Positions 2,198 to 25,893 are shown, counted from the stretch's first letter. The stretch: DNA of 64,000 nt from Candidatus Woesearchaeota archaeon (GCA_016188245.1 JACPIE010000040.1:64365-128364), one strand, 5' to 3'. Notes: generated by a model not told the origin, from the sequence alone. Made by a program: numbers and translations.

Positions 2198-2241
2198 GGT
2201 CAGCCTGCTTTTTCTATATTGGAGACTCTATTGTTTAAGTT

Positions 2242-2290
2242 TCATTACTCCCCCATAGTAAATAACCGAAAGATTTATAAAGGGCAAAAA
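2242..2290 (+). promoter_or_regulatory. Recurrent promoter block, copy a (divergent): ...CATAGTAAATAACCGAAAGATTTATAAAGGGCA...
   Basis: Shares the core ATAGTAAATAACCGAAAGATTTATAAAGGGCA with copies at 3498, 6531 and 8833. CGAAAG + TTTATAAA fits archaeal BRE/TATA. Confidence 0.7.
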
Positions 2291-2331
2291 TAGAAATATT
2301 TAAATATAACGTAATCTTATTGAGGGTTATA

Positions 2332-2988
2332 ATGGTAAAATTACAGGTACTGAGGCACGAAACTGTGAAGAGGATATTCGGCAAAGTTGAGATTGAGACC
2401 ATAATCAAGAAAATGGAAGGAAGAAAACTCAAGCAGACAGAAAGAAATTATCTATACAGGTCAATAAGGCCAAAGCTTGTAGCTGCAAGCATGCTGTCAC
2501 AAGAAAGCATATTAAATGAGATAAATAAAGACAATAGAGAGGATACTTTCGCAGTCGAATGCAATCTTTTTCACTATGGTTATGAAATGATTTCTCTAAA
2601 AAAGAAAAAGGGAAAGGTAATTCCCATAGAAGAGCTGATAGTCAGAATACTTGTCAAATTGCCTATAGCAAGATTTATAGAAGCGATTCCAATCATAATA
2701 ATCAAAAACCACATAGATAAGTTTAGGCTGCTTGAGCTTGCGTCTAGCTATGGCATAAAGAACAAGGTAGGGTATCTTTTGGAAACTGCATTTATGATCA
2801 GGCATATGAACTACCTCACAGACTTGCTTTCATACCTTGATTCAAACAAGGACAATGAGGTGTCATTTTTAGTTGAAGGAGATTATGAATTTTTGTTTAA
2901 GGAGTCCCCTCAAAGAATCAAAAAATGGAGGCTGCTTGGAAGGTTTTTTGATGATGATTTTATCAGAAATGCAAAGGCGTACCTATGA
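2332..2988 (+). CDS. Hypothetical protein, upstream partner of a nucleotidyltransferase (AbiEi-like position)
   Basis: ORF 2320-2988; first ATG at 2332. ATGA overlap with the downstream NTase gene. No motif recognised. Confidence 0.5.
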   Translation: MVKLQVLRHETVKRIFGKVEIETIIKKMEGRKLKQTERNYLYRSIRPKLVAASMLSQESILNEINKDNREDTFAVECNLFHYGYEMISLKKKKGKVIPIEELIVRILVKLPIARFIEAIPIIIIKNHIDKFRLLELASSYGIKNKVGYLLETAFMIRHMNYLTDLLSYLDSNKDNEVSFLVEGDYEFLFKESPQRIKKWRLLGRFFDDDFIRNAKAYL

Positions 2989-3485
2989 TTGATAAAAATG
3001 AGCTGGTGAAATGGCTGAAGTCCATTGACAAGAAGCTTAACAGAAAAATAAGTTTAATAGCAGTAGGGGGCACAGCAATGACTTTACTTAGCCTCAAATC
3101 TTCCACCAGAGATGTGGATTTTTGCATAAAGTCAAATGAGAAAAATGATTTTGAGAAATCTTTGGATAAGAGGTTTAAGGTTGACATTTTTACTGACGGC
3201 TATATTTTTTCTGAGCAGCTGCCCTCTGATTATTTTGAAAAGTCAAAAACTATTGTGGAGATGAAAAACATTGCTTTGAAGGCCCTCCATCCAGTTGATA
3301 TAATAATAACAAAGGCGGCAAGGTTCAATGCAAGGGACGAAGAAGACATTAAAGCACTTTCCAAGTACGTTGACAGGAAAGAGCTGGTAAAAAGGTTTGA
3401 TGAGGTTTTGAAGTCATATTCCGGCAAAGAGGAAGATTACAAATACCACTTTAAGGTTATTTTGAAGAGATTTTTCGATGCTTAA
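2985..3485 (+). CDS. Nucleotidyltransferase-fold protein (minimal NTase, AbiEii/DUF6036-like)
   Basis: IAVGGTAMTLLSLKSSTRDVDF matches the G[GS]x9-13 D.D NTase signature. Translationally coupled to 2332-2988. Confidence 0.65.
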   Translation: MIDKNELVKWLKSIDKKLNRKISLIAVGGTAMTLLSLKSSTRDVDFCIKSNEKNDFEKSLDKRFKVDIFTDGYIFSEQLPSDYFEKSKTIVEMKNIALKALHPVDIIITKAARFNARDEEDIKALSKYVDRKELVKRFDEVLKSYSGKEEDYKYHFKVILKRFFDA

Positions 3486-3497
3486 CTTTCCTTCTTT

Positions 3498-3552
3498 TCA
3501 TCACTCCTTCATAGTAAATAACCGAAAGATTTATAAAGGGCAGAAACAATGG
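3498..3552 (+). promoter_or_regulatory. Recurrent promoter block, copy b
   Basis: TCATCACTCCTTCATAGTAAATAACCGAAAGATTTATAAAGGGCAGAAACAATGG. The TATA (3530-3537) ends about 25 nt before ATG 3563. Confidence 0.75.
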
Positions 3553-3562
3553 CTTTGGAATA

Positions 3563-4687
3563 ATGGGGAGATTGGAAGAGATGGTCAGGATAGCTGTTCC
3601 TGTTGGAAGCAGCTTTGAGGGTAGTGGAGCTGAGGCAGTGCAAAAAGCAGATGCTCAACAAAAAGGCATGACGAGAAGAGGTTTTCTTAGAGGGGGGATT
3701 GCATTGGGAGGCACAGTTGCTTTGACAGCTGCATTAGGAGACCATCAAACAGTTTATGCCAAGCAGCCTCTGCCAGTTTTAGAGCCAAATTTTGAATCGA
3801 TAAATGATGAGTTAGTGCAGACAATTGCGCAGATATTACACGAAAGGCTTATGGTAAGGACAAGCATGGCAACTTGGAAAAGAGAGGATTATCAAGCAGC
3901 CCGTTCCAAATTAAGAGGGTATGGGATTGAGCTGGAAGAAGTGCTGTTTGGCTATCCCCCAAACCTCAATAAGTATTTGATTCCAAGAAGATATTATGTA
4001 AGCGCATTGAACTTTCCTCCCATGGTAATAAAAATTTTTCCAATAATGGAAGCTAGAGACTTTAACAGTTTTGTTGATGGCGGAGGCAATACAAGAAGTG
4101 ATGTATTCGGATTCAAGTTTGGAGCCTATACCCAATGCTTGTTGGATTATGAGGCTTACTCTTCTCATAAAGTTGCTCCTTGGGGATCAGAGGGCAAGTT
4201 GGATGGAATCGGGAATGTTGTTGGTGTGCCTTATAAGCATATCCAAGGCATTTTTCGTAATAGGCCGGAGTTAGCTGACTTGGATGCTGAAGCATTAACT
4301 ATGCATGAAATTGGACATTCAATCTTCCGAACACCTTATGAGGATATAGCAACTATGGTTGAGTTAGGATATAAAAAAGAGAAAAGTCCACCAATAAGAA
4401 GTGTAGATGACTTACACAACTATCTTAAGACTAGACGACTTACTCAAAGCAAATTCGATAGAGTTCAATTGGATATATTGTTTCATGGCAATTTTACGCA
4501 CGGGGCGACCATAAGGGCTCTAAAACAAATCGCTGGAGATTTGCAACATACTTCCATGGAACTTAATAAGATTGACAGAAGGAGGTATCCTACAGACGTT
4601 ATGCAAATTTCAGACCAACAATTACATGCAACTATGGAATTGCTTTTCAATAGGACTAATATAAGCGCGCAGTATAGCTATAGGTAA
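3563..4687 (+). CDS. Tat-signal exported protein with HExxH zinc-metallopeptidase-like motif (family unrecognised)
   Basis: MTRRGFLRGGIALGGTVALTAALG is a Tat-type signal. TMHEIGHSIF is the HExxH motif. Paralog of 8894-10078. Confidence 0.7.
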   Translation: MGRLEEMVRIAVPVGSSFEGSGAEAVQKADAQQKGMTRRGFLRGGIALGGTVALTAALGDHQTVYAKQPLPVLEPNFESINDELVQTIAQILHERLMVRTSMATWKREDYQAARSKLRGYGIELEEVLFGYPPNLNKYLIPRRYYVSALNFPPMVIKIFPIMEARDFNSFVDGGGNTRSDVFGFKFGAYTQCLLDYEAYSSHKVAPWGSEGKLDGIGNVVGVPYKHIQGIFRNRPELADLDAEALTMHEIGHSIFRTPYEDIATMVELGYKKEKSPPIRSVDDLHNYLKTRRLTQSKFDRVQLDILFHGNFTHGATIRALKQIAGDLQHTSMELNKIDRRRYPTDVMQISDQQLHATMELLFNRTNISAQYSYR

Positions 4688-4766
4688 CTCATTTCTTTTG
4701 ATTTTTTTTTAACATTCTTAATTATGAAATTTTCTATCAAGTGTCTTTTCAAAATTTTCTCTCAAG

Positions 4767-4967
4767 CGAAAAGCTTATTAATGACTTCCTGCAGTTTCTG
4801 ATTAAAAGAGAGGTATTTTTAAATATGTCAAAAACACCCCACACTGATACGAAGCGTGTTTTTGAGCATGCCCGGAAATCTTGGGTTTCCGGCATGTCAA
4901 AAAAAGAGGCAGTGTTAGTAATAATCCTAGTTATAATTGCCCTACTTGCAAGTGTCTCTTATGCTGC
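4767..4967 (+). repeat. Segmental duplicate (copy A) of the giant-gene promoter plus signal-peptide region
   Basis: Aligns by eye with 10117-10247 (CGAAAAGCTTATTAATGAC...GGTATTTTTAAATATGTCAAAAA...AAGAGGCAGTGTTAGTAATAATCCTAGTTATAATTGCCCTACTTGCA.GTGTCTCTTATGCTGC), apart from a 69-bp insertion. Confidence 0.85.
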
Positions 4968-5004
4968 AAAGCCTCAAAATATGAATGTAAGCATTCTTTA
5001 TTAA
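4825..5004 (+). pseudogene. Truncated remnant of a giant-secreted-protein paralog (signal peptide only, with an in-frame insertion)
   Basis: Encodes MSKTPHTDTKRVFEHARKSWVSG-MSKKEAVLVIILVIIALLASVSYAAKPQNMNVSILY*. The second half is almost identical to the N-terminus of 10174-16275, then stops 11 codons after the SYAA cleavage-like site. Confidence 0.6.
4835..4893 (+). mobile_element. 59-nt hairpin-bearing miniature insertion flanked by direct repeat ATGTCAAAAA
   Basis: Absent from the paralogous site at 10174-10183. Flanked by ATGTCAAAAA at 4825-4834 and 4894-4903. Contains hairpin CATGC-CCGGAAA/TCTTGGG/TTTCCGG-CATG (4867-4896). A related copy lies inverted at 26191-26231. Confidence 0.55.
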
Positions 5005-5063
5005 ACCCTTGATTTACTTACATGTAACTAACATTTATATATAAGTTATGATACTTATACTCT

Positions 5064-5633
5064 ATGCGAGGCGACAAGAGGGAAAGAATACTAAGAGTAA
5101 TGCTCAGCAGCAAGGAAGCATTGAGCAAGAACGAGCTCTCAAAAAGGGCAGAGTGCACCAGGCAGTGGATTATTCTTTTCCTGAAGGAATTAGAGAAAAA
5201 GAAGCTGGTAAACGGAACTACCCCAATAGACAGGAAAAAACTTCTGCAATATTGGATTAACATATCAAGAAGACCAAAAAAATACAAGAGTTATATGGTC
5301 AAAGAGCCATTAGAACTGCTTAAAAAAACTAAGCTAGATTATGCTCTGACAACTTATCAGGCAGAAAACATTGTACAGCATTATCTTTTTCCTTCAAGAG
5401 TGGACTTGTACATGAAGGAAAGTGATTTGGATAGTTGGCACAACCTTCTGACAAAAAATGGATTGTATGGGAAAGGAAATGTCAGAGTCATAATTGCCGA
5501 TGAGCATAGGAAGTATGGAAAAAGAATTATAAACGGGCTTTCAATAGTTTCAATGCCGCAGCTTATTGTTGATTTGACTAATGAAGGAGGCCCTTGTAAA
5601 GAAGCAGCTGAAATGCTTATGAAGAGGATTTAA
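5064..5633 (+). CDS. AbiEi-like protein (N-terminal winged-helix plus C-terminal domain), putative antitoxin/regulator
   Basis: The N-terminus RERILRVMLSSKEALSKNELSKRAECTRQWIILFLKELEKKKLV looks like a wHTH. Immediately followed (TAA-ATG) by an NTase gene, the AbiEi/AbiEii arrangement. Confidence 0.55.
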   Translation: MRGDKRERILRVMLSSKEALSKNELSKRAECTRQWIILFLKELEKKKLVNGTTPIDRKKLLQYWINISRRPKKYKSYMVKEPLELLKKTKLDYALTTYQAENIVQHYLFPSRVDLYMKESDLDSWHNLLTKNGLYGKGNVRVIIADEHRKYGKRIINGLSIVSMPQLIVDLTNEGGPCKEAAEMLMKRI

Positions 5634-6401
5634 ATGTATAAGGAATTTGAAACCAGAACATCATACAATTATTTGAAGGAAGTTATTAAGAACTTGAATG
5701 AGCCTATCTGCATACTAGGCGGCTGGGCTGTCTTCTTTCACGTCAATGAGAAATTTGAGAAAGCCCAAGGCAGGCCATATTTGGGCAGCAGGGACATTGA
5801 CTTGGGATTTAACATCAGCGGAGATTTAAAGCAGTCTGCTTTATCTCAAGCAATATCCATATTGACAAAAAATCTCAATTTTAAGCCATTAAGCTTCAGG
5901 TTGGTGAAAGAAATACACACAGAAACAGAAGAAGAGATTAAAAATGGAGAAATTGTGCAAGCCCACTTTGTTTTTCCAATGTATGTTGACCTGATAGTTG
6001 ATTCAATCCCAAGGGATTTTAGGGAAATATTTGGATTTAGCCCCATTGATGAGCCATTGCTTAAAACCGTATTCGAGAAAAAAGAGTTTGTAATTATAAA
6101 AAAATTTGGAAATAAGCTGCTTCTTCCAAAGATAGGTGTCCTTTTGGCAATGAAAGCAAGCTCAATTCCAAACAGGGATAGGGAGCATAAAAAGATAAAA
6201 GACATTTGTGATATGTTTGCATTGGCATGGTATTCGGATATCAAACTTGCGAATGTTAATCTTACAAAATATGTTTCTAAAAATAACCTTAAGAAATGCC
6301 TAAAATCAATAACACAAGATGGCCTTGAAAAATCAGCTGCTCAGATAGGGCATGACAAGGAAGAGCTAAAAAGGATTATTAATCTTATCTGTAAAAAGTA
6401 A
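5634..6401 (+). CDS. Nucleotidyltransferase (AbiEii-like toxin-type NTase)
   Basis: ILGGWAVFFHVNEKFEKAQGRPYLGSRDIDLGF gives the GG...S.D.D NTase motif. Adjacent to the AbiEi-like gene. Confidence 0.6.
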   Translation: MYKEFETRTSYNYLKEVIKNLNEPICILGGWAVFFHVNEKFEKAQGRPYLGSRDIDLGFNISGDLKQSALSQAISILTKNLNFKPLSFRLVKEIHTETEEEIKNGEIVQAHFVFPMYVDLIVDSIPRDFREIFGFSPIDEPLLKTVFEKKEFVIIKKFGNKLLLPKIGVLLAMKASSIPNRDREHKKIKDICDMFALAWYSDIKLANVNLTKYVSKNNLKKCLKSITQDGLEKSAAQIGHDKEELKRIINLICKK

Positions 6402-6530
6402 TAAAAAATTCATTCTTTTTATGCAGCTTTATTTTTTCTTGGGCTTGCCTGTTAAAGAAATAATAGCGGGTTTTACCAGCATTGGTTTATGATTATGCAG
6501 CAAAGCAAAAATTCTTTAGAGATATATTAT

Positions 6531-6584
6531 TCATCACTCCTGCATAGTAAATAACCGAAAGATTTATAAAGGGCAGAAACAATG
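6531..6584 (+). promoter_or_regulatory. Recurrent promoter block, copy c
   Basis: TCATCACTCCTGCATAGTAAATAACCGAAAGATTTATAAAGGGCAGAAACAATG, near-identical to copies b and d. Confidence 0.75.
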
Positions 6585-6595
6585 ATATTGGAAGT

Positions 6596-6634
6596 ATGGG
6601 GCTGGAAGGGTTGGTTTGGCAAGAAGATTTCTGA
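6596..6634 (+). pseudogene. 12-codon remnant of the Tat-protein family leader (MGLEGLVWQEDF*)
   Basis: Same spacing from promoter block c as the MGRLEEMVRIAVPVGSS / MQRLEDMLKMALPVGSS starts of 3563 and 8894. Nucleotide similarity ATGGGG..TGGAAG, then a stop. Confidence 0.4.
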
Positions 6635-6716
6635 TGGATCTGGAATAGATTAACCACAAAATTTATATATAAGTGCCTACTTTTATTACTAAAATGGTAA
6701 TTTCAGCAGGGGTAAA

Positions 6717-7964
6717 ATGTACTTAAAAAGATTTTTAGAAGAGGATATTAAAAAATACATTAAAAAACGGGAAATAATAGCTATCATAGGCCCAAGGCAA
6801 TCGGGAAAAACCACGCTTCTCGGGCATTTTTATGAAAACCTCAAAAATGCAGTTTTTCTGGATTTTGAAGACAGGGAAACATTAGAGCTGTTTAGCGAAG
6901 ACATTCATTCATTTATTGAGCTGTATGTAAAAAAGCATGACTATGTGTTTATAGACGAGTTCCAATATGCCAAAGAAGGCGGCAAAAACTTAAAGTATAT
7001 TTATGACAACTTCAAAGCTAAAATCATTATATCGGGGTCATCTGCAAGCGAGTTGTCAATACAAAGCATAAAATTTCTTGTTGGAAGGATATTTGTTTTC
7101 ACGCTGTATCCATTCTCATTTGAAGAGTACCTCAGCTGCAAAAATATCGGCTTGTATAATCTTATGAGAATCGGAAAATTAACGCGTCCATTGATAGGGA
7201 GAGTCATGCCTTATTTTAATGAATTTTGTATATACGGAGGCTATCCTAGGGTAATCTTATCCAAAGATAAGCCAGAAAAGGAGATTGTATTAAAAAACAT
7301 CTACAACACCTATTTCCTTAAGGAGATAAAAGAGATCTTAAATCTGCCAGATGACTACAAGTTAAGCAGGTTGATACACGCATTGGCTCTTCAGGTAGGG
7401 AATATTGTGAATTACAAAGAGCTTGCCGACATTACTGGGTTTAACTACAAAGATTTGTTAAGATACCTTAATGTTCTTGAAAAGACATTCATCTTAACAA
7501 GAAGCCTGCCTTTCCATACAAACAAGAGAACAGAGCTCGTAAAGTCGCCAAAATCATTTTTTTTGGATTCCGGATTCAGGAATATTGCCATAAAAAATTT
7601 TCAGCCGGTTGAAAATAGGCCTGACAAAGGGAGCCTTTATGAGAATTTTGTAGCTTCCGAACTGGTGAAATCCGGCATCGGGCTTAAATACTGGCGCACA
7701 AAATCAATGGCTGAAGTTGATTTTGTGATAGAAAGAAATAACAGAATTATGCCTGTTGAAATTAAATCCAGCCTTATCAAGCCCAAGTTTACAAAATCAT
7801 TTTTAAGTTTCCTTGAAAAATATAAGCCCGCAAAATCATTCATATTATCTGAAAGGCTGTTTGCAGAAAAAAATAAAACTAAGTTCCTTCCAATATTTTA
7901 CATTGGGATTTTGGATAAAGGCATGCCAAAGTACAAGGCATTGGCAAGCAGCATCCAGGCATAA
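6717..7964 (+). CDS. AAA-superfamily ATPase (AAA_14 + DUF4143-type, COG1373-like)
   Basis: Walker A IIGPRQSGKTTL and Walker B-like YVFIDEFQY. Length and C-terminal EVDFVIE (restriction-endonuclease-like fold motif) are typical of this family. Confidence 0.8.
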   Translation: MYLKRFLEEDIKKYIKKREIIAIIGPRQSGKTTLLGHFYENLKNAVFLDFEDRETLELFSEDIHSFIELYVKKHDYVFIDEFQYAKEGGKNLKYIYDNFKAKIIISGSSASELSIQSIKFLVGRIFVFTLYPFSFEEYLSCKNIGLYNLMRIGKLTRPLIGRVMPYFNEFCIYGGYPRVILSKDKPEKEIVLKNIYNTYFLKEIKEILNLPDDYKLSRLIHALALQVGNIVNYKELADITGFNYKDLLRYLNVLEKTFILTRSLPFHTNKRTELVKSPKSFFLDSGFRNIAIKNFQPVENRPDKGSLYENFVASELVKSGIGLKYWRTKSMAEVDFVIERNNRIMPVEIKSSLIKPKFTKSFLSFLEKYKPAKSFILSERLFAEKNKTKFLPIFYIGILDKGMPKYKALASSIQA

Positions 7965-8004
7965 ATGTTGGAAATTTAGAGAAGCCATAAATTCCGCAAA
8001 AAAA

Positions 8005-8469
8005 TTATTTCAGCTTGGAAATCAAGATAGAATATTCTGTTGAAGAAATGTAATAACCTATTTCAATGAGTTGGCTTAAAATTTTAAGCACTTCAGGTTC
8101 AGTTATGATTCTTTTTTTCATAGCTGCAAAAATAACCGTTGTTGTCCTTACTGCGTTAATGCCAAATGCTTTGGCAGCTTTTATAGCAACGGCATCATCG
8201 AGTATAATGCCGTCTTTCTTCTCGATAGCGAGGTTGATTGCTTGCTCCTCTCCTGCTCCAAGCCCGATTTTAGTTTTTCTTTTTGGGTTGATTACCTTCA
8301 GCCATCCGCCCTTAATGGCATTGTATATGCTTATATATCCATCCTTATCTTCTATAAGCACTTCCTCCTTTACAGCAGGAGGGATAAGTATAATCTTGTA
8401 TACTTTCTTAAGCAAGTCAAGCTTGCTTATCCTGCTCAAGCAAATCAGCGCTGTTGCATCTGATATCAA
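8005..8469 (-). CDS. PIN-like nucleic-acid-binding protein (DUF3368/COG2405-type), putative toxin
   Basis: MISDATALICLSRI...ILDDAVAIKAAKAFGI pattern. TTGA overlap with the upstream UPF0175-like gene. Alternative (TTG) start. Confidence 0.65.
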   Translation of the reverse strand: MISDATALICLSRISKLDLLKKVYKIILIPPAVKEEVLIEDKDGYISIYNAIKGGWLKVINPKRKTKIGLGAGEEQAINLAIEKKDGIILDDAVAIKAAKAFGINAVRTTTVIFAAMKKRIITEPEVLKILSQLIEIGYYISSTEYSILISKLK

Positions 8470-8792
8470 GATTTTCCCTCTAGAAGCCTAAGATCACTTT
8501 CAAGATCTTCTTTGGAATAGCCCGTCCAGTTTATATTATTCTCTTTTGCAATATCAAGCATTTCCCATAGCGAAAGCCCGCATTCTTCAGCAGCGCTGCC
8601 GATTGAAATTTTGTGCTGTCTCAATCTTTCAATAGAGTTTTGTATTTTCCAAGAGCTTACAGCTTTAGCTAACAGCCTTCTAATGGCTTCTGAGCGGTCT
8701 GCCTGCCAGTTTTTCTCAATTTCAGACAAATCCTTGACAAGTGAATTATCAAGCCTTACCGAAATAGTCGTTGTCATTGTATTCAATATCAT
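8466..8792 (-). CDS. UPF0175/RHH-type antitoxin-like protein
   Basis: N-terminal TISVRLDNSLVKDLSEIE...EAIRRLL is RHH-like. The C-terminal SIGSAAEECGLSLWEMLDIAKENNI is typical of UPF0175 partners of DUF3368 PIN proteins. Confidence 0.65.
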   Translation of the reverse strand: MILNTMTTTISVRLDNSLVKDLSEIEKNWQADRSEAIRRLLAKAVSSWKIQNSIERLRQHKISIGSAAEECGLSLWEMLDIAKENNINWTGYSKEDLESDLRLLEGKS

Positions 8793-8832
8793 ACAATGTA
8801 AACCACTATATAAAGCTTTACTTTTTATTATT

Positions 8833-8886
8833 TATCACTCCTTCATAGTAAATAACCAAAAGATTTATAAAGGGCAGAAACAATGG
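8833..8886 (+). promoter_or_regulatory. Recurrent promoter block, copy d
   Basis: TATCACTCCTTCATAGTAAATAACCAAAAGATTTATAAAGGGCAGAAACAATGG. TATA at 8864-8871, ATG at 8894. Confidence 0.75.
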
Positions 8887-8893
8887 TGTTTGC

Positions 8894-10078
8894 ATGCAAA
8901 GATTGGAAGATATGTTGAAGATGGCACTGCCTGTTGGTAGCTCTGGAAGTGAAACGGCTGGATTGCATGAAGCTTATCAAAATGGAATTACAAGAAGGGG
9001 TTTTCTTGGGGGAGGGATTGCTTCAGCAGCGTTAGTGGCAAGCGGATGCGCTACAACTAAAAATACTCCACATTCTTCAATTGATGATAGAACTATACAG
9101 ACTGCTAGATCGAATAGCATAGATTCAGTACAGGACCCTTTTGTCAGGGATGTTGCGATGTACTTTGATGCCAAATTTAGGACAGGAGACGCTGCTGTTA
9201 AGGAACAAGCTGAACGAAAGTTGACGCGACAAGGAGTTGTAAAAAGAGATTTGGTATTCCCGGAAAACATTAACAGATTATTAATACCTAAAGGTGTATT
9301 TCTAACATCATATACTGTATGGCAGGGCCCTAATCAATATATTGAAACAGCTGCAATTTATAGAATAGCCAAAAAAGATTTTTTTAACGGGTTTTTTCAT
9401 AATGGAAAATGGAGCAACAGATTTTCCGGTTTTCAATTGGAAGGTTATGACCGATATTTGTTTGGTCCGCAAATCTTTGCAACGCATAAAATGCCTGCCA
9501 GATCGGTATATTATACGATTAGGCACCCAGATGGCAAAGCTGAGCGTGTCATTGGAATCCAGCAAGATGCTATACAGAGAGCTTACTCCAGATTTGGCCC
9601 AAAGATAGTGGCAGAAGTGATCCAAGATGTATCAATGGAGGAAGCCGCCCATCTTTTGTTTAGAAAACCGTATAAGTATCCAACAATGTTGGTTGGATTA
9701 GGCGCCTATAGGGTTGATGGCGATATTGATTTAAAGAGTCCAAAAGATGTTGCAGCCAAATTAGCGACGATGGAGTTAACCAAAAATCCGCTTGTAGGTA
9801 TTTATCTTGACCTAATCAGTTTTGTGAATGTAGATGGCAAAAAAGTGCCAAGGGCGCAGGCAACATACGACCCCGGAAATCAGGTTGTTCACCACAATGG
9901 TTTTCTTAGCATAGAAAATGGACTCAGGGAATTAAGTCCAAAGTTAAACAGACATAACGATAAGCTTGCAGCAAATCCGAGTGAATCATCTTATGAACAA
10001 TTGAATTATAGTTTGGCTCACCTGCTTCAAACTAAAGGCAGGGAAACTCTAATCGATTTTCCTTCCGCCGGTAGATAA
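8894..10078 (+). CDS. Tat-signal putative lipoprotein, paralog of 3563-4687 with a degenerate HExxH (EExxH)
   Basis: ITRRGFLGGGIASAALVASGCA is a Tat motif followed by a lipobox-like L-V-A-S-G-C. SMEEAAHLLFRKPY aligns with TMHEIGHSIFRTPY of the paralog. Confidence 0.7.
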   Translation: MQRLEDMLKMALPVGSSGSETAGLHEAYQNGITRRGFLGGGIASAALVASGCATTKNTPHSSIDDRTIQTARSNSIDSVQDPFVRDVAMYFDAKFRTGDAAVKEQAERKLTRQGVVKRDLVFPENINRLLIPKGVFLTSYTVWQGPNQYIETAAIYRIAKKDFFNGFFHNGKWSNRFSGFQLEGYDRYLFGPQIFATHKMPARSVYYTIRHPDGKAERVIGIQQDAIQRAYSRFGPKIVAEVIQDVSMEEAAHLLFRKPYKYPTMLVGLGAYRVDGDIDLKSPKDVAAKLATMELTKNPLVGIYLDLISFVNVDGKKVPRAQATYDPGNQVVHHNGFLSIENGLRELSPKLNRHNDKLAANPSESSYEQLNYSLAHLLQTKGRETLIDFPSAGR

Positions 10079-10116: not shown

Positions 10117-10247
10117 CGAAAAGCTTATTAATGACTGGTTGCAGTTTTCATTAAAAGAACGGTATTTTTAAATATGTCAAAAAAAGAGGCAGTGTTAGTA
10201 ATAATCCTAGTTATAATTGCCCTACTTGCAAATGTCTCTTATGCTGC
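10117..10247 (+). repeat. Segmental duplicate (copy B): promoter plus signal-peptide region of the giant gene
   Basis: See 4767-4967. CGAAAAGCTTATTAA is a BRE/TATA-like element, and TTTTTAAATATG lies just before the start. Confidence 0.85.
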
Positions 10248-13200
10248 CCAGCAGCAAAAGGGATTTTGGGCTAAAGTGAAAGAGGCAATAAACAGCCTTC
10301 TCTACTGGAGTCCAGAGGACTTGGCTTCCATTTATGCAGATGCATTAAAGACTAATGCAAAGGCAGTTAAAGATGAGAATGGGAATATTATCTTAGTGAT
10401 TGTTGAAGTAGATGGGGGAGTAATCAGAGTAACCAAGTTATCAGATATTCTAAAAACCGCTGACCAACTTCCAACTCCTGAAGAAAAAGCATCATATTTA
10501 AGAGAACTAGTCATAGCCAATGGCGGCCAAAATATTGTGGAAAGGGCAGAGTGGATAGATATAACAAAGCCTGATGTTAGCCAAGTAGCAAAAGATTTTT
10601 TTCCAGGGGTCGTGGAAAAAGTTGCAAAAGAAGAAGCAGAAAAGAATAGAGAACAGGATGCATATGTTCAGCAGCAAAAGCTTCAAGCTGCAGTTAACTT
10701 AATGAGTGACCAGGAAAAATTAGCCAAATCTTTTGAATTGTTAGAAGCTACTGAATCATTGGGTTCAGCACAGGTTTCTTATTCTGGAAACACGAGAACA
10801 ATCTCTTTTGAAGATGGAAACCAATTATCATATGTATGGAATGGCGAGGAATGGGTGCCGGAAAGTTACGAAGAGGGGGCTATTCCAGTCATTGAAGAAG
10901 AAAGTGGTGTAGTTAAAGAACCGCCTAAGTTCTTTTCTAATAAACCTAACTTTAAGCTTGTAACTGATCAATCAAATGTAAAAATTTGGCAGGAAAAAAA
11001 TATATTCATAAAGGTTATTGGAGAGGGAGCTATAAATATCGAATCTTCTGGAATGGACATTTCCAAAGCTCTTAAACTTATAGCCCTCGGAGTTCATATT
11101 GAAATTAGCAGCAACGCCCGTGGCAGTGCATTCAGGATTACTGCTGAAAAAGGTACAATTTCAGTAAGTGCCAGTGATGGAAAGGCAATCGAATTTACCG
11201 ATGTTAAAAGCATTGAGCTGTCTGAACCAAAAAATACAGTATACAACACAGAGGAAGGAATTATTCATAATGGACCGATAGTGCAAACAATAACTGTCAG
11301 AGGGAAACAAACCCAGAATATTGTTGAAACATTTGTAATTGGTGTGGCAACTATCCCTAATTTAGCTACACATGTCTTAATTAAACAGGTTAGTGCAGTG
11401 CATAGTCCTGAAATAACGGCTAGCGGAGGCGGTTTGTCTTATGATTTTGCACCTAAACAAGATGAAAAGATTACAGCAACTTTTAACGGAGAAAACCCAA
11501 TGGCTTATGAGCCTGTGAATTTAGAACATCCCTTTGAATCCTTATCCAGTTTGCAGTTTGGACCTGCTGAAATTGAAACAAAAAGAGGCAATACACTAGA
11601 AAAGCTCATAAGCAACAGTGAAAGATTTATGCTAACAAAAAGTGAAACTCAACCGAATGGAGAAAAAATAAATGATGTTTTAATTGATTTAAACCGGCCA
11701 CAAATTTTAGGAATTAGTAAGTTTACACATGAAACAACAGGTAAAGAAATGATTGCCGTCACAGTTCTGGGTGTGAATACGGCAGGGAGCCTTGAAACTA
11801 ATGTAGTGGCAATGGTAGATGATGGGAACAGCTTCAGAATGATAGATGCAATCAGCAGCAGAGGCGGAAATAGGGAGATTACCGGCGACCCGAGGTTCAA
11901 TGTTTGGGCTCCTAATGTAGAGGCATTTGATGATGGCTCGATGTTTCAAATCGTAGGAACCTCACCAACTCACTATCTGTCACAAAGGATGATGTCAATC
12001 GGTCCCAAGAGCGGATTAACAGCCAATGAATTTAGGGCAATGAGCCCATCTGCATTGGTGGAAAAGCTCCTAATCAACCCAAATCTTGGTGGAGGAATCG
12101 CTACCCCGAGTAGAAGCCAATTTCAAATGAACAATGGAGAACTATTTATCAAGTCTAATAACAACAATCAAATAAAATTAAATAATATTGAAGTTGAGTC
12201 TATTGAAGTAACCCCTCCCTATGTTAGTTTTGAAAGAGGTGCAGCTAGTCCAGGTCGGACTCTTGTTAAGGGAACAGGAGACCGAATATCTGATGGTAAA
12301 AAAGTTGAGTTTCAATTTTGGGTGGAAGATTACGGGTACCCGCCTGTAGAACCAACAATTCAAATCAATTATGTAAGAGAAAAAAAAATAGAGCTTGCTC
12401 CTGAAATTACCACAGTAATTGAACAAGAGCCAATATCCACAGAGTCTAACCCTTTCTCCATCTTCATTCCTCTGCCAACATACTACCCAGCAATTGACTT
12501 TCCAACTCGGCAGCCTCAGCCTAGGATTTGCGGCGATGGAATATTAAATGTTCCGGAGCAATGCGAAAGCCCGAACACAAATGACAATCCTTTCTGCGTC
12601 AACAACCCTATCCTGATGTGCTTAAACAGGAAAACTGCGATAAGAGATGCGTATGGGAAATGCAATTCGGGATGCAGCTGCCAATATGACAGCCCTGCAA
12701 GCGTGTCGTGCATCAAGGGATTGTGCGGGGCAAACTGCTCAAATAACAATGATTGTGCAACTGGCACGCTTTGCAGCAGAACATCGTGCTTATGCATTGC
12801 CCCTCCCCTTAATGGGCTATGCGGCGATGGAATCATCCAGTCTCCAAACAATGACAGCATACATGAAGAATGCGATGGGGATGCTGATGAAATATTGAAT
12901 GATACTGGATTCTGCAAAATTGTAAGGAAATGTGTTGACTGCAAATGGCAGCCCCTTTTAGATTCTTCTGATTCTCAGTTTGAATTATGTGATGGAATAG
13001 ACAACAACTGCAATAGTTTAATAGATGAAAACATCCAGATAACCCCGTCACAAAATGAAGAAGGCTATTGCAATAGCCAAGTTGGAGTCTGCTACAACTC
13101 AAAGAAGAGATGCGGCGGATTGTCTGGATTTGCAGAATGCTCAACTCAAGACTATAACTACACAGGACAATATGAGCAGGTAGAGGCATTGTGCGACAAT

Positions 13201-16200
13201 CTCGATAATGACTGTGATGGCTCGATTGATGAAGGCTGTCCATGTGTCATAAATTCAACAAAATCATGCGGGCAAAGCAATTTTGGAGTTTGCAAGCTGG
13301 GAGTCCAAAATTGCACTGAGCAGGGAGTCTGGGGACTGTGCCAGGGCGCCATTTACTCTGAATCAAACAAGGAAGCAGTGTGCAACAGCATTGATGATGA
13401 CTGTGACGGAATTATTGATGAAAATTTGAAGAACAGGTGCGGCGAATGCGGGCAGCTGCCTGAAGAGGTTTGCGACTATATAGATAATGACTGCGATGCG
13501 GAAATGCAAAGCCCGACAACAAAGTGCACGCAGGAATGCGTTGGAATGTGGATGCTTCAAGGTGCAAAATGCATATTCAATGAATGCGGCAGCGGGTGCG
13601 GCCCTGATAACGTTGATACTTTCAAAACTGAAGTAGAGTGCAAGATTAAATCTATGGATAGTGAAAGAATTTGCCCGCAGCGATGCGTTGGAATGTGGAT
13701 GCTTCAAGGTGCAAAATGCATATTCAATGAATGCGGCAGCGGGTGCGGCCCTGATAACGTTGATACTTTCAAAACTGAAGTAGAGTGCAGCAAGACTGCA
13801 GGGCAATTCTCCCTAAAATCAGATAAAATAACATTTGATAAAGACCAAAATTTAACTGTAACATGGAACAATCCCGGCACTGCAAATTGCGTTGATTCCC
13901 AGATATGCGAACAAAGCAATGCAGAAGCGGGTAAAAATCCAGGGTGCGGCAATGGGCAATGCATGGAATATTTGCATACTGTTACTACAACAATACCGGG
14001 CATCTGCCGCATTGTTGACGAAGGGGGGCAGGTATCCTGCGATCCCGATGGGGTTTCTGAAACTTCTACTTCATACCCTGAAAGCTGCCAGGTATGCCCC
14101 CAAGACTGCGGCCAATGCGCCCCAAAATGCACCAACACTACAACATGCGCTCCTTCAACACCGAACTACTATGATTTTATTACATTTGTGCCTTTGGGGC
14201 AGTCAAGCTATGACGGCTTTCCAATTGAATATGTAAAAGGGGCAAAAGCAGGCACAGGCAGCATTAAAGTACCTCCTGTTCCCGGCAAGTATGAGCTGGT
14301 TTATGTTGACTATTCAACCAAAAACATTATTGCCAAAGGCTCTGCTATCACCGTTAATCCGCCAAAAGATGCTGTATGCGCGGCAGATTCAAAACAATGT
14401 CCTGACGGCAGCTCAGTTGGAAGAGACCCAGCTAACAACTGCAACTTTTATCAATGCAAAAAATCAATATTAAATGCTGATTTTGCCAATCCTTGCCCTT
14501 TCGGCACAATCTGCAAGGGAGTTTACGCTGACGGCATTGACAGCAACGCAAACGGAATTATTGATGAGGGGATAGATGAAGACGTCAAGACCAATCCCTC
14601 CGGAAACTATACAAACTGGTGCGATGCAAATGCATGCACAAAGATAAAGAGGACATGCTCCAAAGTGTTGGAAGATGAATTCAAAAAAATATACAGGAAA
14701 AAAGACAAGTCAAAGCTGGAAGAATACATAAAAGGAAGCGAATATTTCTCATGCCCTCCTGATGATAGCGATGCAGTTTGCTGCGAAAATCCAAATTCAT
14801 GCGTCTACAACGGGAAGTGCTATGCCAATGGCAGCATTGAAGACATTGGCAACGACGGAATAATGGACATGTGTGTAGTAGAAAGCCCAGGAACATGGGT
14901 TGTCAATTACGAAACCAACTGCATAGACGGAATAACCAATGACGCAGATCCTTTGATAGACTGCCAAGACCCTGATTGCGATGGGTTGCCGGGCCAAAAT
15001 GGGGCAATATGCTGCCATTCTGCAAATGACTGCCCGCAGGACGACTGCGTTGCGGAAAGCTGCGCGAATAATGAATGCGCGCTCACAAGCAGAAATTTAT
15101 GCGATTCGGCCGAATGCCCCCAAAATTCATTCTGCAATGCAACAGCAGGAGACTGCAAAGCAGCGGATGAAAGCAGCAGCGTGTGCTTAAATTGTGTTGC
15201 AGACTCAACTTTAATGTCATGGAACTCCACATCCCATATTGACGCCGGCAAGGAGTATTCAAGCAATCTAAATGTGTTCAACTCATTGTTTAATTCAGAT
15301 GCGCTTTCCTGCCCGCCTTCAAGCTGCTCCAAATCAAACTGCAGCTGCTTTGATTCGTCAAACAGCATTGCAAATCACAATGCTGCAATATCTGGAGGGA
15401 ACTGCTGCGGAGACGATCCAAATGAATATTTCAAGAAAGACTATTTTGGAGGAGAATGCGCAAATAATGCAAGCGATTGTGTTTGGCCAACTGGAGACTC
15501 GCAAAAAAGCAACACAGGAAATGCTGAATGGTGGTGCTACCTTCATGAATGGTCCCAATGCGATAACAGCTCGATCGGCAGCAAAGCCGGAGCTGTAACC
15601 TGCGCCGGAATTTCTGGAAACAACAGATGGATGTTAAATCCTGCTCCTGAAAGCCAATACTCATGCAATGACTTAAAAGACAATGATGGAGACGGGGCAG
15701 CGGATTGCGAGGATAGCGACTGCTACAGCGCGCTTCAGGGGAAAGTGACAGATGGGTCAAACTCCCCAATCAACGGGGCGTCTGTGATTGTCAGGAAAGG
15801 CAGCAGCCAAATTGCATCCTTGACGACAAATTCCCAGGGAGATTATAACGCAAGCTCATTATCATGCGGAAACTATCAGGTGTCTGCTTCGCATTATGAA
15901 TATTCAACACAATCCAGGTTTTTCACGGTCAATGCATTGCAGCAGTATAACATAGACATTGTTTTGGGAGCTGAAAACTCATGCGAAGCTGACTGCACCC
16001 TGGCATATGACGAGACGATACATGCTTCCTGCGCAAACATAAACGGCTGCACCTTTTATGACGACAAAGCAAAGGAAATATGCGATTTTGCAAAGCCGGG
16101 CTGGGTCAGGGATTATAATGAAACACACTACATTGCTTGCGCTTCAGGCTCTCCTGAAGCCAAGATTGAGTTAAAAGCAAGCATAAGCTGCGCATCAGGA

Positions 16201-16275
16201 ACCCTTGTCAAGATTACAAGAATCGTGCTTTACAACGGCGAGCCTGTCAAGCTTGTTGTGGCAGCATGCGGCTAG
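10174..16275 (+). CDS. Giant (2033 aa) secreted Cys-rich surface protein with MopE-like CxxxD(N/D)DCDGxxDE motifs and a C-terminal CarboxypepD_reg-like domain
   Basis: Signal peptide MSKKEAVLVIILVIIALLANVSYAA. Motifs CDGIDNNCNSLIDE, CDNLDNDCDGSIDEGC, CNSIDDDCDGIIDE, CDYIDNDCD and CNDLKDNDGDGAADCEDSDC. GKVTDGSNSPINGASVIVRKG...TNSQGDY is a regulatory-like beta-sandwich. Very high Cys content after about residue 780. Confidence 0.85.
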   Translation: MSKKEAVLVIILVIIALLANVSYAAQQQKGFWAKVKEAINSLLYWSPEDLASIYADALKTNAKAVKDENGNIILVIVEVDGGVIRVTKLSDILKTADQLPTPEEKASYLRELVIANGGQNIVERAEWIDITKPDVSQVAKDFFPGVVEKVAKEEAEKNREQDAYVQQQKLQAAVNLMSDQEKLAKSFELLEATESLGSAQVSYSGNTRTISFEDGNQLSYVWNGEEWVPESYEEGAIPVIEEESGVVKEPPKFFSNKPNFKLVTDQSNVKIWQEKNIFIKVIGEGAINIESSGMDISKALKLIALGVHIEISSNARGSAFRITAEKGTISVSASDGKAIEFTDVKSIELSEPKNTVYNTEEGIIHNGPIVQTITVRGKQTQNIVETFVIGVATIPNLATHVLIKQVSAVHSPEITASGGGLSYDFAPKQDEKITATFNGENPMAYEPVNLEHPFESLSSLQFGPAEIETKRGNTLEKLISNSERFMLTKSETQPNGEKINDVLIDLNRPQILGISKFTHETTGKEMIAVTVLGVNTAGSLETNVVAMVDDGNSFRMIDAISSRGGNREITGDPRFNVWAPNVEAFDDGSMFQIVGTSPTHYLSQRMMSIGPKSGLTANEFRAMSPSALVEKLLINPNLGGGIATPSRSQFQMNNGELFIKSNNNNQIKLNNIEVESIEVTPPYVSFERGAASPGRTLVKGTGDRISDGKKVEFQFWVEDYGYPPVEPTIQINYVREKKIELAPEITTVIEQEPISTESNPFSIFIPLPTYYPAIDFPTRQPQPRICGDGILNVPEQCESPNTNDNPFCVNNPILMCLNRKTAIRDAYGKCNSGCSCQYDSPASVSCIKGLCGANCSNNNDCATGTLCSRTSCLCIAPPLNGLCGDGIIQSPNNDSIHEECDGDADEILNDTGFCKIVRKCVDCKWQPLLDSSDSQFELCDGIDNNCNSLIDENIQITPSQNEEGYCNSQVGVCYNSKKRCGGLSGFAECSTQDYNYTGQYEQVEALCDNLDNDCDGSIDEGCPCVINSTKSCGQSNFGVCKLGVQNCTEQGVWGLCQGAIYSESNKEAVCNSIDDDCDGIIDENLKNRCGECGQLPEEVCDYIDNDCDAEMQSPTTKCTQECVGMWMLQGAKCIFNECGSGCGPDNVDTFKTEVECKIKSMDSERICPQRCVGMWMLQGAKCIFNECGSGCGPDNVDTFKTEVECSKTAGQFSLKSDKITFDKDQNLTVTWNNPGTANCVDSQICEQSNAEAGKNPGCGNGQCMEYLHTVTTTIPGICRIVDEGGQVSCDPDGVSETSTSYPESCQVCPQDCGQCAPKCTNTTTCAPSTPNYYDFITFVPLGQSSYDGFPIEYVKGAKAGTGSIKVPPVPGKYELVYVDYSTKNIIAKGSAITVNPPKDAVCAADSKQCPDGSSVGRDPANNCNFYQCKKSILNADFANPCPFGTICKGVYADGIDSNANGIIDEGIDEDVKTNPSGNYTNWCDANACTKIKRTCSKVLEDEFKKIYRKKDKSKLEEYIKGSEYFSCPPDDSDAVCCENPNSCVYNGKCYANGSIEDIGNDGIMDMCVVESPGTWVVNYETNCIDGITNDADPLIDCQDPDCDGLPGQNGAICCHSANDCPQDDCVAESCANNECALTSRNLCDSAECPQNSFCNATAGDCKAADESSSVCLNCVADSTLMSWNSTSHIDAGKEYSSNLNVFNSLFNSDALSCPPSSCSKSNCSCFDSSNSIANHNAAISGGNCCGDDPNEYFKKDYFGGECANNASDCVWPTGDSQKSNTGNAEWWCYLHEWSQCDNSSIGSKAGAVTCAGISGNNRWMLNPAPESQYSCNDLKDNDGDGAADCEDSDCYSALQGKVTDGSNSPINGASVIVRKGSSQIASLTTNSQGDYNASSLSCGNYQVSASHYEYSTQSRFFTVNALQQYNIDIVLGAENSCEADCTLAYDETIHASCANINGCTFYDDKAKEICDFAKPGWVRDYNETHYIACASGSPEAKIELKASISCASGTLVKITRIVLYNGEPVKLVVAACG
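13536..13789 (+). repeat. Perfect 107-bp direct repeat (13536-13642 and 13683-13789; 147-bp period) inside the giant gene
   Basis: Letter-by-letter comparison shows identical copies, each encoding CVGMWMLQGAKCIFNECGSGCGPDNVDTFKTEVEC. Confidence 0.9.
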
Positions 16276-16276
16276 A

Positions 16277-16609
16277 ATGAAAAAACAAGAACATGCAAAG
16301 AAAAAAAGGTGGAACTTTCATTTATTGGTTCCTGCACTTGTGCTTGCGGCAGTCTGGCTTGTGTTTTTCAGCATTGGCACATCAAAAAATGAAAAAGATA
16401 GTGATTATAGGGGCGAAGCAATCCAAATGGGCAAAATTGACGAGAATATTTTGAATGGGATTAAGGACATGGAATATAGCAAGGTAAAGGAAACGCTCAA
16501 TGCAACGGGCGATTTCTGCCTTGTTGTTGTTGACGGCCAGAATTCGGTTTTGCTGGAAAAGCATCCGGGCGGCAAAACTCAGGCTGAATTGTGCGATGGA
16601 ATGGTTTGA
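16277..16609 (+). CDS. Small N-terminally anchored membrane protein (110 aa)
   Basis: ATG one nt after the giant-gene stop; its TGA abuts the next ATG. MKKQEHAKKKRWNFHLLVPALVLAAVWLVFF is a TM anchor. Confidence 0.6.
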   Translation: MKKQEHAKKKRWNFHLLVPALVLAAVWLVFFSIGTSKNEKDSDYRGEAIQMGKIDENILNGIKDMEYSKVKETLNATGDFCLVVVDGQNSVLLEKHPGGKTQAELCDGMV

Positions 16610-21037: not shown

Positions 21038-21039
21038 AA

Positions 21040-22239
21040 ATGAAAAAAATAGTTTTATTTTCAATGTGGTTTTTGGTATTAGCAAGCATAAGCTATGCAA
21101 AAATCGAGTTTTACACGGGCAATGTCGAAGTGAATTCTTTTACAGCAACCGCAGATTTAAAAGACAAGGCTTATGTGGATATGGAGTATATTTTAACCGG
21201 AAATGAAGATGTCACAATTGAATTTAACAATGTCCCAAGCAATGCTGAGATTGCAGTTGGAAATCAAAAGCACGGAAATAAGTTTAATCTGCAGGTAAAG
21301 GGGGAAACGGCGATTAATGTAAAATTCACCGAAGAGCTGGGCAACAGCCCATTGAAGCAGTTCTCGGCAAACCCAAACATACTATTCAACGGAAATGTCA
21401 ATTCACGCCCAATAGCTCATTACAGGGCCAGGATTTTAATGCCCGAAAAAGTTGGTGAGCTGTTGGGCTCAAGCGAAAAGCCGACATCAAGCCAAAAGGT
21501 TGATGAACGGCAATTATTTGAATGGCTCAAGTCAGATTCTTACGCAACTGCTTTGACAATAAGCTGGCACAGCCTTGATGTGGATATTGACGTGCAAAGG
21601 CATATCCCGACCATAATAAATAACCAGTTTACTGTTAGGAATGTGATAAGGAATAACGGAAAAGAAATCAGGAATGTAAAGCTCGTGCAGTCATTTTTGG
21701 AAGGCGATGTTGAGGCAGTTGAGCCATTAAGCGAATTCCAGGTGATACTGGCGGGAAATGACATAAGGACAGAGTGGACAAAAGAAATGCCAGTGGTTGA
21801 TGCCGGCGCCGCAATCACATCTTACTACACGCTCAGGGCAAAAAGAACAGGCGAAAACATTGTTTTCAGGCCTCTCGAAGTTTATGTCGATGGCGTGCTC
21901 GCCAAAATTGTTGAAAGAGAAGAATATTTCAGCGCTCCGGATGTTCTCAATTTGACAAGTTTTACTTCAACTGCTGAATCTGCAATGCGGCTTTTGGTGG
22001 AAACTCCTTCTTCAGAAGGCGAGATGATGCCGGGGCGCCCGATTCCTCCGGAAAGCATACCTGTGCCAGAAGCGGTTAAAGAGCAGATTACGCCTGCAGC
22101 GCCTGAAACAGGAAAAGAAGCAATAAGGCAGGCGGCGGGCAAAAAAAACCAGCTTGTCTTATTGGCTGTGTTTGTAATTCTTGTTGCGCTTGTTACTCTG
22201 GCTTATAGGAAATTCAGGGAGAAAGGCAGGCTGGGATGA
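21040..22239 (+). CDS. Secreted protein with C-terminal TM anchor (400 aa), function unknown
   Basis: Start chosen at MKKIVLFSMWFLVLASISYA (ATG 21040, 2 nt after the upstream stop). The C-terminus is LVLLAVFVILVALVTLAYRKFREKGR. Confidence 0.7.
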   Translation: MKKIVLFSMWFLVLASISYAKIEFYTGNVEVNSFTATADLKDKAYVDMEYILTGNEDVTIEFNNVPSNAEIAVGNQKHGNKFNLQVKGETAINVKFTEELGNSPLKQFSANPNILFNGNVNSRPIAHYRARILMPEKVGELLGSSEKPTSSQKVDERQLFEWLKSDSYATALTISWHSLDVDIDVQRHIPTIINNQFTVRNVIRNNGKEIRNVKLVQSFLEGDVEAVEPLSEFQVILAGNDIRTEWTKEMPVVDAGAAITSYYTLRAKRTGENIVFRPLEVYVDGVLAKIVEREEYFSAPDVLNLTSFTSTAESAMRLLVETPSSEGEMMPGRPIPPESIPVPEAVKEQITPAAPETGKEAIRQAAGKKNQLVLLAVFVILVALVTLAYRKFREKGRLG

Positions 22240-22288
22240 TTTCCCGGGTCCAACCCCAACTTTTATAAACATATCTTCATTCTCGAAA

Positions 22289-22804: not shown

Positions 22805-22815
22805 CAGGCACCCCA

Positions 22816-23019
22816 ATGGCAAAAATGGCAGAAGAGCAAAAAGTATTTTTGTTGAGGGTAGATGTGATGACAAACAACATACAGACATCAATGAAAACCC
22901 AGAATGTTTCTCCCCAGGAGGCAATCGGATTTTTGGAGATGGCAAAAGACCAGATACTTGACAACCTGAAGCAGGGAAGGAAGGACATATTCCAGGCTTT
23001 CAAGAAAGATGAGGGCTAG
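22816..23019 (+). CDS. Small hypothetical protein (67 aa)
   Basis: ORF only, tightly packed before sppA (the stop abuts ATG 23020). Confidence 0.4.
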   Translation: MAKMAEEQKVFLLRVDVMTNNIQTSMKTQNVSPQEAIGFLEMAKDQILDNLKQGRKDIFQAFKKDEG

Positions 23020-24145: not shown

Positions 24146-24292
24146 AATCTTTAAAAGAAAATTAATTTAAAATATTTTTGGCAGAGGCTTTGCAAAAAGC
24201 CAGTAGATGATACCTTATCCAAAGATTAAGTTAAAGTAACAGTCTCCGCCAACCTAAAGTAATTTAAATAAGTTGTGTCACTGATTGGAGGG

Positions 24293-25887: not shown

Positions 25888-25893
25888 TCTTCA

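Follow-up and report, generated by a model that had tools for sequence, protein, structure and literature searches.

The window analysed here is a 64,000-nt stretch of a contig from a Candidatus Woesearchaeota archaeon (JACPIE010000040.1, positions 64365-128364; assembly GCA_016188245.1). Towards its left end lie two paralogous genes, ORF A and ORF B (ORF, open reading frame), each followed on the same strand by the start of a gene for a giant secreted protein, which is truncated behind ORF A and complete behind ORF B. The two products are homologs that align almost from end to end (28% identity across 325 amino acids [aa], E 5e-27, BLASTP), as a first-pass annotation made from the sequence alone had proposed. 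The N-terminal stretches, twin-arginine translocation (Tat) motifs, aligned cores and lipobox-like ASGC site of ORF B (C52) that it quoted were all found in place. The core reads TMHEIGHSIFRTPY in ORF A (H248-H252) and SMEEAAHLLFRKPY in ORF B (E249-H253). The host is archaeal: the window encodes aIF-1A, split RpoA'/A'' and RpoB'/B'', a diphthamide-synthesis protein and an archaeal type IV pilus ATPase, and its RpoA' is 90% identical to that of a Woesearchaeota metagenome-assembled genome from Rifle groundwater, in line with the DPANN setting that the first-pass annotation had in mind. The two genes, their motifs and the giant gene are located as follows.

3563-4687, + strand: ORF A, 374 aa, open reading frame intact; the N-terminal conserved stretch MGRLEEMVRIAVPVGSS precedes the Tat motif
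3671-3688, + strand: Tat motif TRRGFL of ORF A (aa 37-42); the h-region ends in a cleavage-like site, VYA/KQ
4304-4318, + strand: HEIGH motif of ORF A (aa 248-252)
4340-4342, + strand: E260 of ORF A, candidate third ligand
4767-5004, + strand: truncated copy of the giant-gene start (promoter and signal-peptide start), after ORF A
8894-10078, + strand: ORF B, 394 aa, open reading frame intact; N-terminal conserved stretch MQRLEDMLKMALPVGSS
8990-9007, + strand: Tat motif TRRGFL of ORF B (aa 33-38)
9038-9049, + strand: lipobox-like VASGC of ORF B (C52)
9638-9652, + strand: degraded motif EEAAH of ORF B (aa 249-253)
10117-10173, + strand: promoter of the giant gene, with its own BRE/TATA-like element (BRE, B recognition element)
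10174-16275, + strand: giant gene, secreted protein of 2033 aa

Family range and the HExxH motif

An exhaustive HMMER search of 1.84 billion protein cluster representatives recovered a family of 11 clusters, nine of them besides ORF A and ORF B, with members in Woesearchaeota and a few bacteria.

P0003: A-type, 40% identical to ORF A
P0004: B-type, 31% identical to ORF B (E 1e-50), with a B-specific insert in common
P0007, P0010, P0011: on low-GC contigs (35-37%); MBS3096703.1, of a Ca. Woesearchaeota assembly, falls in the P0011 cluster
P0005, P0006, P0008, P0009: on bacterial-looking contigs; that of P0005 has 58% GC, with TonB receptor, sigma-54 activator, FecR and CHASE2 cyclase genes as neighbours

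A word-indexed search of 5.8 billion proteins with ORF A, ORF B and the 11-sequence profile returned essentially the queries alone, and a scan of GTDB genomes with patterns from ORF A and P0003 found no relative. The first-pass annotation had not recognised the family, and searches of Pfam, NCBIfam, PADLOC and PDB sequences, with single sequences and with the profile, likewise gave no meaningful match for any member. Judged by sequence, ORF A and ORF B represent a family that is new, very rare and unlike any known one, its members being extracytoplasmic proteins of ~300 aa in the mature form.

The HExxH motif is a feature of this family and not a chance occurrence. In the 11-sequence alignment its Glu (E249) is invariant, the first His (H248) is kept in 9 of 11 members and the second (H252) in 10 of 11. 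A further Glu, seven residues past the second His (HExxH-x7-E; HEIGHSIFRTPYE in ORF A), is kept by all nine members with the region intact and is replaced only in ORF B (by Lys, in YKYPT) and P0004 (by Asn). Each of these two proteins also lacks one His, the first in ORF B and the second in its ortholog P0004; in the fragment P0008, Arg occupies the first His position and the distal Glu is kept. ORF B and P0004, which have lost different His residues and share the B-specific insert, are both full-length and maintain their export signals. Because the losses are coordinated and strike different residues in two orthologs, which is the best argument that these data offer, His-His-Glu appears to form one functional site, and the B-type lineage appears to be catalytically dead yet maintained. 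The pattern fits relaxed constraint on a putatively dead site in an otherwise maintained protein and points to a pseudoenzyme lineage, which is how the first-pass annotation had read the EExxH copy. Dead copies of proteases may be retained beside active ones as pseudoenzyme paralogs. ORF B and P0004 resemble such paralogs in keeping length, export signal and, presumably, fold after loss of the metal ligands that the A-type retains, and they differ in that both still carry the catalytic-base Glu.

The AlphaFold2 model of ORF A built with the 11-sequence alignment had a predicted local distance difference test score (pLDDT) of 79 and a predicted template modelling score (pTM) of 0.76; across the mature domain, pLDDT exceeded 90 in most 10-residue blocks. 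A two-sequence alignment gave a model of no use (pLDDT 41). The predicted elements run from helices at residues 83-142, through five strands within 144-222, to a helix at 235-254 that bears the HExxH motif with pLDDT >90; a five-residue turn, a helix at 260-269 opening with E260, and a C-terminal helical bundle follow. E260, conserved in members with the region intact and modelled on the helix after the motif helix, is a candidate third ligand. In its modelled layout the family is zincin-like, the elements being ordered as in zincins, and it is placed in no known peptidase family. It resembles gluzincins, among them minimal zincins such as Zincin_1, in that a beta-sheet precedes the predicted alpha-helix with HExxH, the helix after it bears a conserved acidic residue, and the C-terminal subdomain is helical. 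It is unlike them in the very short gap between the second His and the Glu (seven residues), in the long N-terminal helical segment of its ~300-aa domain, and in having no significant sequence (E 0.19) or Foldseek match among them.

Export signals and the N-terminal region

The Tat consensus S/T-R-R-x-F-L-K, followed by a moderately hydrophobic Gly/Ala-rich h-region, is matched by both ORF A (TRRGFLRGGIALGGTVALTAALG) and ORF B (TRRGFLGGGIASAALVASGC), and RR motifs are kept in five relatives (P0003, P0004, P0005, P0007 and P0010; the motifs among relatives are TRRELL, TRRALI, DRRTFF, DRRGFL and GRRGFL). A regular-expression scan of the 64 kb found only three RR-type signal motifs, in ORF A, in ORF B and in a minus-strand ORF beginning near position 364. 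The last is a third Tat-like start, present as the first-pass annotation had it; it was undetected by the family profile and has no family assignment. The h-region of ORF B ends in V-A-S-G-C, with Ala rather than Leu at position -3 when compared with the lipobox [LVI][ASTVI][GAS]C. The lipobox Cys is clearer in P0010 (FTGC), P0011 (LGGC) and P0006 (LYGC).

1-364, - strand: third RR-signal protein, start MDKPYRAASG..DGRRAFLKGAVALAGGLASVVAG.. (DGRRAFLKGAVALAGG); runs off the left end of the window
42994-44391, + strand: Lnt homolog, 465 aa, with CN_hydrolase and LNT_N domains (TIGR00546, 137.7 bits against a curated cut-off of 132.9)

Haloarchaeal halolysins are Tat-exported extracellular serine proteases of the S8 type. 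ORF A and ORF B are similarly candidates for archaeal secreted hydrolases with a twin-arginine signal, although of HExxH type and from a non-halophilic DPANN archaeon. The combination of an RR signal with a lipobox Cys in ORF B is also seen in Tat lipoproteins of Haloferax, and non-haloarchaeal genomes are predicted to rely mainly on Sec (PMC6098224). Literature searches on Tat in Woesearchaeota or DPANN archaea found no direct statement. The 42994-44391 product is a bacterial-type lipoprotein-maturation enzyme on a Woesearchaeal contig; neither Lgt nor LspA was identified among the scanned window ORFs, and a 2018 review states that Lgt, LspA and Lnt homologs were not identified in archaea (PMC6098224).

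Unlike in haloarchaeal Tat proteins, the n-region ahead of RR is unusually long (33-37 residues) and conserved, with the pattern M-x-R-L-E-[ED]-M-..-A-x-P-V-G. It abuts a highly conserved DNA module, and the public gene call for ORF B (P0002) begins at residue 24. It is conceivable, though improbable, that translation starts at a Met directly before TRR (M36 in ORF A), the upstream stretch being a 5' leader or regulatory RNA; MTRR is indeed present in three of four close members (ORF A, P0003 and P0004). ORF B, however, has no Met ahead of TRR, and an LE-containing N-terminal segment recurs in distant members, including bacterial P0005. Moreover, the first 17 codons of ORF A and ORF B are 62% identical in amino acids and 75% in nucleotides, their substitutions are conservative (E/D, V/L, R/K, I/M), and third positions reach 56% identity against 35% overall. 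This pattern favours selection on the peptide over recent gene conversion, which is unsupported as the cause of the conserved N-terminus since third-position identity is just modestly raised. The TATA box position also suits a leaderless mRNA from the upstream ATG, and because of it and the conserved N-terminus a start at 8894 is favoured over the public call for ORF B. That a dedicated Tat chaperone binds the n-region is speculation.

The giant secreted protein and the promoter module

The giant protein has a Sec signal peptide (MSKKEAVLVIILVIIALLANVSYAA), a Cys-free region covering the first ~700 aa, a Cys-rich region with MopE-type CDxxDxDCDG motifs and a CarboxypepD_reg domain near the C-terminus. 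The same promoter and signal-peptide start does follow both family genes, complete at 10174 and truncated at 4825, as claimed in the first-pass annotation. Segments 4767-4838 and 4894-4979 are 90-94% identical to 10117-10259, so that the first 86 coding bases are duplicated before the match breaks. In the truncated copy the first ATGTCAAAAA (ATG) lies at 4825 and a second ATG at 4894 (MSKKEAVLVIILVIIALLASVSYAAKPQNMNVSILY, then a stop); by alignment the copy has an in-frame 69-nt insertion relative to that at 10174, and 59 nt of this insertion (4835-4893) have no second occurrence in the window. Beyond 4979 no similarity is left, and the ORF runs to a stop at 5004. The Sec signal peptides at 10174, 16610, ~21040 and ~26280 share a recurrent SYAA/SYAK/AYS ending, which is probably a site preference of the signal peptidase in this lineage.

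Next downstream of the family gene, all archaeal contigs examined carry a secreted-protein gene in the same orientation, or what remains of one. These contigs represent at least three lineages, with family proteins just 23-29% identical to ORF A. In L003 (A-type) and L004 (B-type) the same MSKKEAV start follows each family gene, and the L003 copy is frameshifted, again a remnant behind an A-type gene. For the distant members in L011, L012 and L013, a gene with a signal peptide, likewise ending in AYSA, lies 32-60 nt further downstream on the same strand. L114 comes from a second Woesearchaeon; there a signal-peptide remnant of 31 aa lies behind the family gene, then a PemK toxin-antitoxin pair, and past the pair a 57-aa chimera. 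Part of the chimera is a MopE-type, Cys-rich fragment that matches residues 1043-1091 of the giant protein at 47% identity. Taken together, the contigs suggest that the ancestral order in these archaea was the family gene followed by the gene of a large, Cys-rich secreted protein.

The first 9 kb contain four copies of a ~56-nt promoter module; at ≤3 mismatches the rest of the window has none. A near copy of its core lies at ~24909. The module copies and the units around them are as follows.

2241-2296, + strand: module copy before an unrelated two-gene unit
2241-3485, + strand: unit after the first module copy, with a 222-aa protein of unknown function and a DUF6036 nucleotidyltransferase
3497-3552, + strand: module copy upstream of ORF A, TTCATCACTCC..TAGTAAATAACCGAAAGATTTATAAAGGGCAGAAAC
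5064-6401, + strand: insert between the paralogs, with a 189-aa protein (sub-threshold helix-turn-helix match) and a 255-aa protein; no family match
6530-6585, + strand: module copy before the A-like remnant
6596-6634, + strand: A-like start remnant of 12 codons, ATGGGGCTGGAAGGG.., MGLEGLVWQEDF and a stop
6717-7964, + strand: AAA_14/DUF4143 ATPase (PADLOC PDC-S01, E 4e-91)
8005-8792, - strand: DUF3368 protein and UPF0175/ribbon-helix-helix pair (PADLOC PDC-S70)
8831-8886, + strand: module copy upstream of ORF B, with TATA at 8864-8871 and ATG at 8894

The copy upstream of ORF A contains a BRE-like CCGAAAG and a TATA element, TTTATAAA, at 3530-3537. The TATA centre lies ~29 nt before the ATG in both ORF A and ORF B, and from this spacing and general archaeal promoter geometry their mRNAs would be leaderless or nearly so. 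A scan for bacterial-type promoters and terminators was uninformative, the host being archaeal. Identity among the copies at 3497, 6530 and 8831 is 93-96%, and 96% between the first and each of the others, whereas ORF A and ORF B share only 28%. Exact copies of the 26-nt core, TAGTAAATAACCRAAAGATTTATAAA, lie upstream of unrelated genes in 20 JGI metagenome contigs (L094-L113), in most cases 21-35 nt from the ATG. The distant family members in L011 and L013 are preceded by the core at two mismatches; IMG/VR gave 0 matches to it. Conservation of the module across genes and genomes is unusually strong.

The cassette at 6717-8792 (defence and toxin-antitoxin genes) is flanked by module copies. The insert at 5064-6401 has a lower GC content (34-37%), and the two-gene units before and after ORF A are not paralogs of each other. 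L114 carries three module copies within 3 kb (2581-5600), before the family gene, the chimera and a 26-aa remnant of a family-gene start, with PemK and BrnT cassettes between them. Its truncated gene starts (3824-3919, 4581-4754 and 5517-5597) have window counterparts at 6596-6634 and 4825-5004. The pattern suggests a mechanism of recombination or insertion that is linked to the module and has acted repeatedly. Since the module is common to unrelated genes, the repeats tell more of recombination in a variable island than of a regulatory pair. The duplicated and truncated pieces are best read as scars of module duplication and cassette insertion, and not as evidence of dedicated regulatory pairing. 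Of the first-pass view that the repeated modules mark a functional pair, the duplications themselves are real, and the pairing is weakened by the module's presence upstream of unrelated toxin-antitoxin and defence genes and in the 20 contigs. The arrangement resembles integron-like cassette arrays in that co-oriented accessory, toxin-antitoxin and defence units are parted by a ~56-nt sequence in two genomes. It is unlike them in that the repeat is a BRE/TATA promoter 5' of each unit rather than an attC-like imperfect palindrome 3' of it, and no integrase was seen in the window.

A proposed role and its alternatives

The most likely account, to which we assign a probability of about 0.5, is that ORF A is an exported zincin-like metallohydrolase, ORF B its lipid-anchored dead paralog, and the two belong to an ancestral pairing with the giant surface protein. 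Family members would be exported by the twin-arginine signal, or in some cases by a Sec/lipobox signal, and would often be lipid-anchored via the lipobox Cys. ORF A, with its site intact, would be soluble after signal-peptidase cleavage and most likely an active metallohydrolase, probably a peptidase. ORF B would be membrane-anchored and kept as a binding or regulatory protein. On the ground of the ancestral gene order in Woesearchaeota, the family is suggested to act on or with the giant protein at the cell surface, be it by maturing, trimming or anchoring it. Duplication of the ~56-nt module in a variable island, with toxin-antitoxin and defence cassettes between the copies, may have produced the duplicated and truncated structure seen today.

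Several observations weigh against this account. Neither ORF A nor ORF B reaches the cut-off of the two Tat-signal models (22.7 bits for PF10518, TAT_signal, with scores of 17.2 and 13.2; 16.7 bits for TIGR01409, with 12.0 and 13.3). A regular-expression scan of the 64-kb window found no TatA-like motif, and neither tatA nor tatC was seen in it. P0006 and P0011 have non-RR lipobox signals, and Tat export is therefore not obligatory for the fold. No peptidase family was matched by sequence, the best hit being Zincin_1 (PF06262) in P0006 only (12.2 bits against a cut-off of 22.4, E 0.19), and Foldseek gave nothing significant against PDB (best E 0.96) or BFVD (best E 0.16), zincins appearing only at noise level (M48, E 0.69 and 2.5; M1, E 4.9). 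The family gene of L114 is intact on 22 contigs on which the partner gene is destroyed, with none intact in cis, and the bacterial members in the contexts examined have no secreted-protein partner downstream (the P0009 context, L118, was left out as its assembly looks error-rich). No significant similarity links the proteins downstream in L011 and L012 to the giant protein of the window, and the signal-peptide likeness of downstream genes is generic, as SYAA/SYAK/AYS endings occur on several window proteins. The giant gene also has its own promoter, and T-rich tracts follow ORF B; therefore ORF B and the giant gene are neighbours and not a demonstrated operon. The coupling proposed in the first-pass annotation is thus upheld as adjacency in all archaeal contigs and qualified by the separate transcription units, the partnerless bacterial relatives and the state of L114.

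The principal alternative is that the adjacency is incidental, ORF A and ORF B being fast-evolving accessory exoproteins of a hypervariable toxin-antitoxin and defence island, and the shared modules by-products of recombination between promoter repeats with no functional tie to the giant protein. It is a tentative but serious possibility. It would explain why the four-copy module has an exact core before unrelated genes in 20 contigs, why its copies flank the PDC-S01 and PDC-S70 cassettes in the window and the PemK and BrnT cassettes in L114, and why gene-start remnants lie at 6596-6634 and at 5517-5597, respectively. It also accommodates the lack of synteny in bacterial members, the persistence of the L114 family gene although the giant gene downstream is fragmented, and the mere 31-40% identity among orthologs despite conserved flanks. 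It is harder to reconcile with the co-oriented secreted-protein gene or remnant in every archaeal contig examined, across at least three lineages, and with the MopE-type Cys-rich fragment retained in L114.

A different objection concerns the motif itself. HExxH...E may be no peptidase site but that of another metal-dependent hydrolase, or a structural or binding metal site, the family then consisting of surface receptors or binding proteins. Neither hidden Markov models nor Foldseek returned a peptidase family or zincin fold, and members with a degraded motif (ORF B and P0004) are still full-length with export signals. We consider this unlikely, given that His and Glu are lost together, that the model places the motif helix and then a helix with a conserved Glu after a beta-sheet, as in zincins, and that the weak matches point the same way: the sub-threshold Zincin_1 match spans exactly the motif (P0006 aa 191-216 against Zincin_1 positions 68-93), and M48 and M1 appear in the Foldseek noise. 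Foldseek is weak on small shared cores, so its null result leaves a distant zincin possible. The profile searches and structure prediction envisaged by the first-pass annotation thus gave no confident match to a characterised family.

DPANN archaea are thought to live attached to hosts via very large surface proteins. A more elaborate scenario, which we regard as quite improbable, is that a previously unrecognised metalloprotease-like fold serves as a two-part DPANN surface module, in which the Tat-exported active enzyme matures the giant Cys-rich protein, and its capture and tethering, presumably in aid of host attachment, fall to the lipid-anchored dead paralog, while the promoter and 5' end double as a portable recombination module that gathers toxin-antitoxin and defence cassettes. 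The locus is a small and tractable candidate for the maturation, anchoring and lipidation of DPANN surface proteins: it offers an orphan HExxH family with a confident model, in putatively active and dead versions, ancestrally beside a giant protein, as well as a bacterial-type Lnt on the same contig. The module around toxin-antitoxin and defence cassettes in two Woesearchaeal genomes also bears on how variable islands form in reduced genomes. Should the family be unrelated to the giant protein, it would still be a new exported metallohydrolase-like family common to Woesearchaeota and a few bacteria.

Beyond ORF B, an island at 10174-29911 codes for large secreted proteins and proteases. Besides the giant protein (2033 aa, Cys-rich, with MopE motifs), these include a Kelch/PKD protein of 1475 aa, an SppA-like S49 peptidase and an S8 subtilase of 1239 aa whose C-terminus carries a transmembrane anchor; a Fic protein is also encoded there. 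Among the bacterial members, P0005 lies in a neighbourhood conserved in several peat and bog metagenomes (L005-L010), where a CHASE2-guanylate cyclase gene is divergently upstream and adjoins genes for a FecR-domain protein of 645-712 aa and for a sigma-54 activator; on the downstream side, 124 nt from the family gene, is a gene of metallo-beta-lactamase fold.

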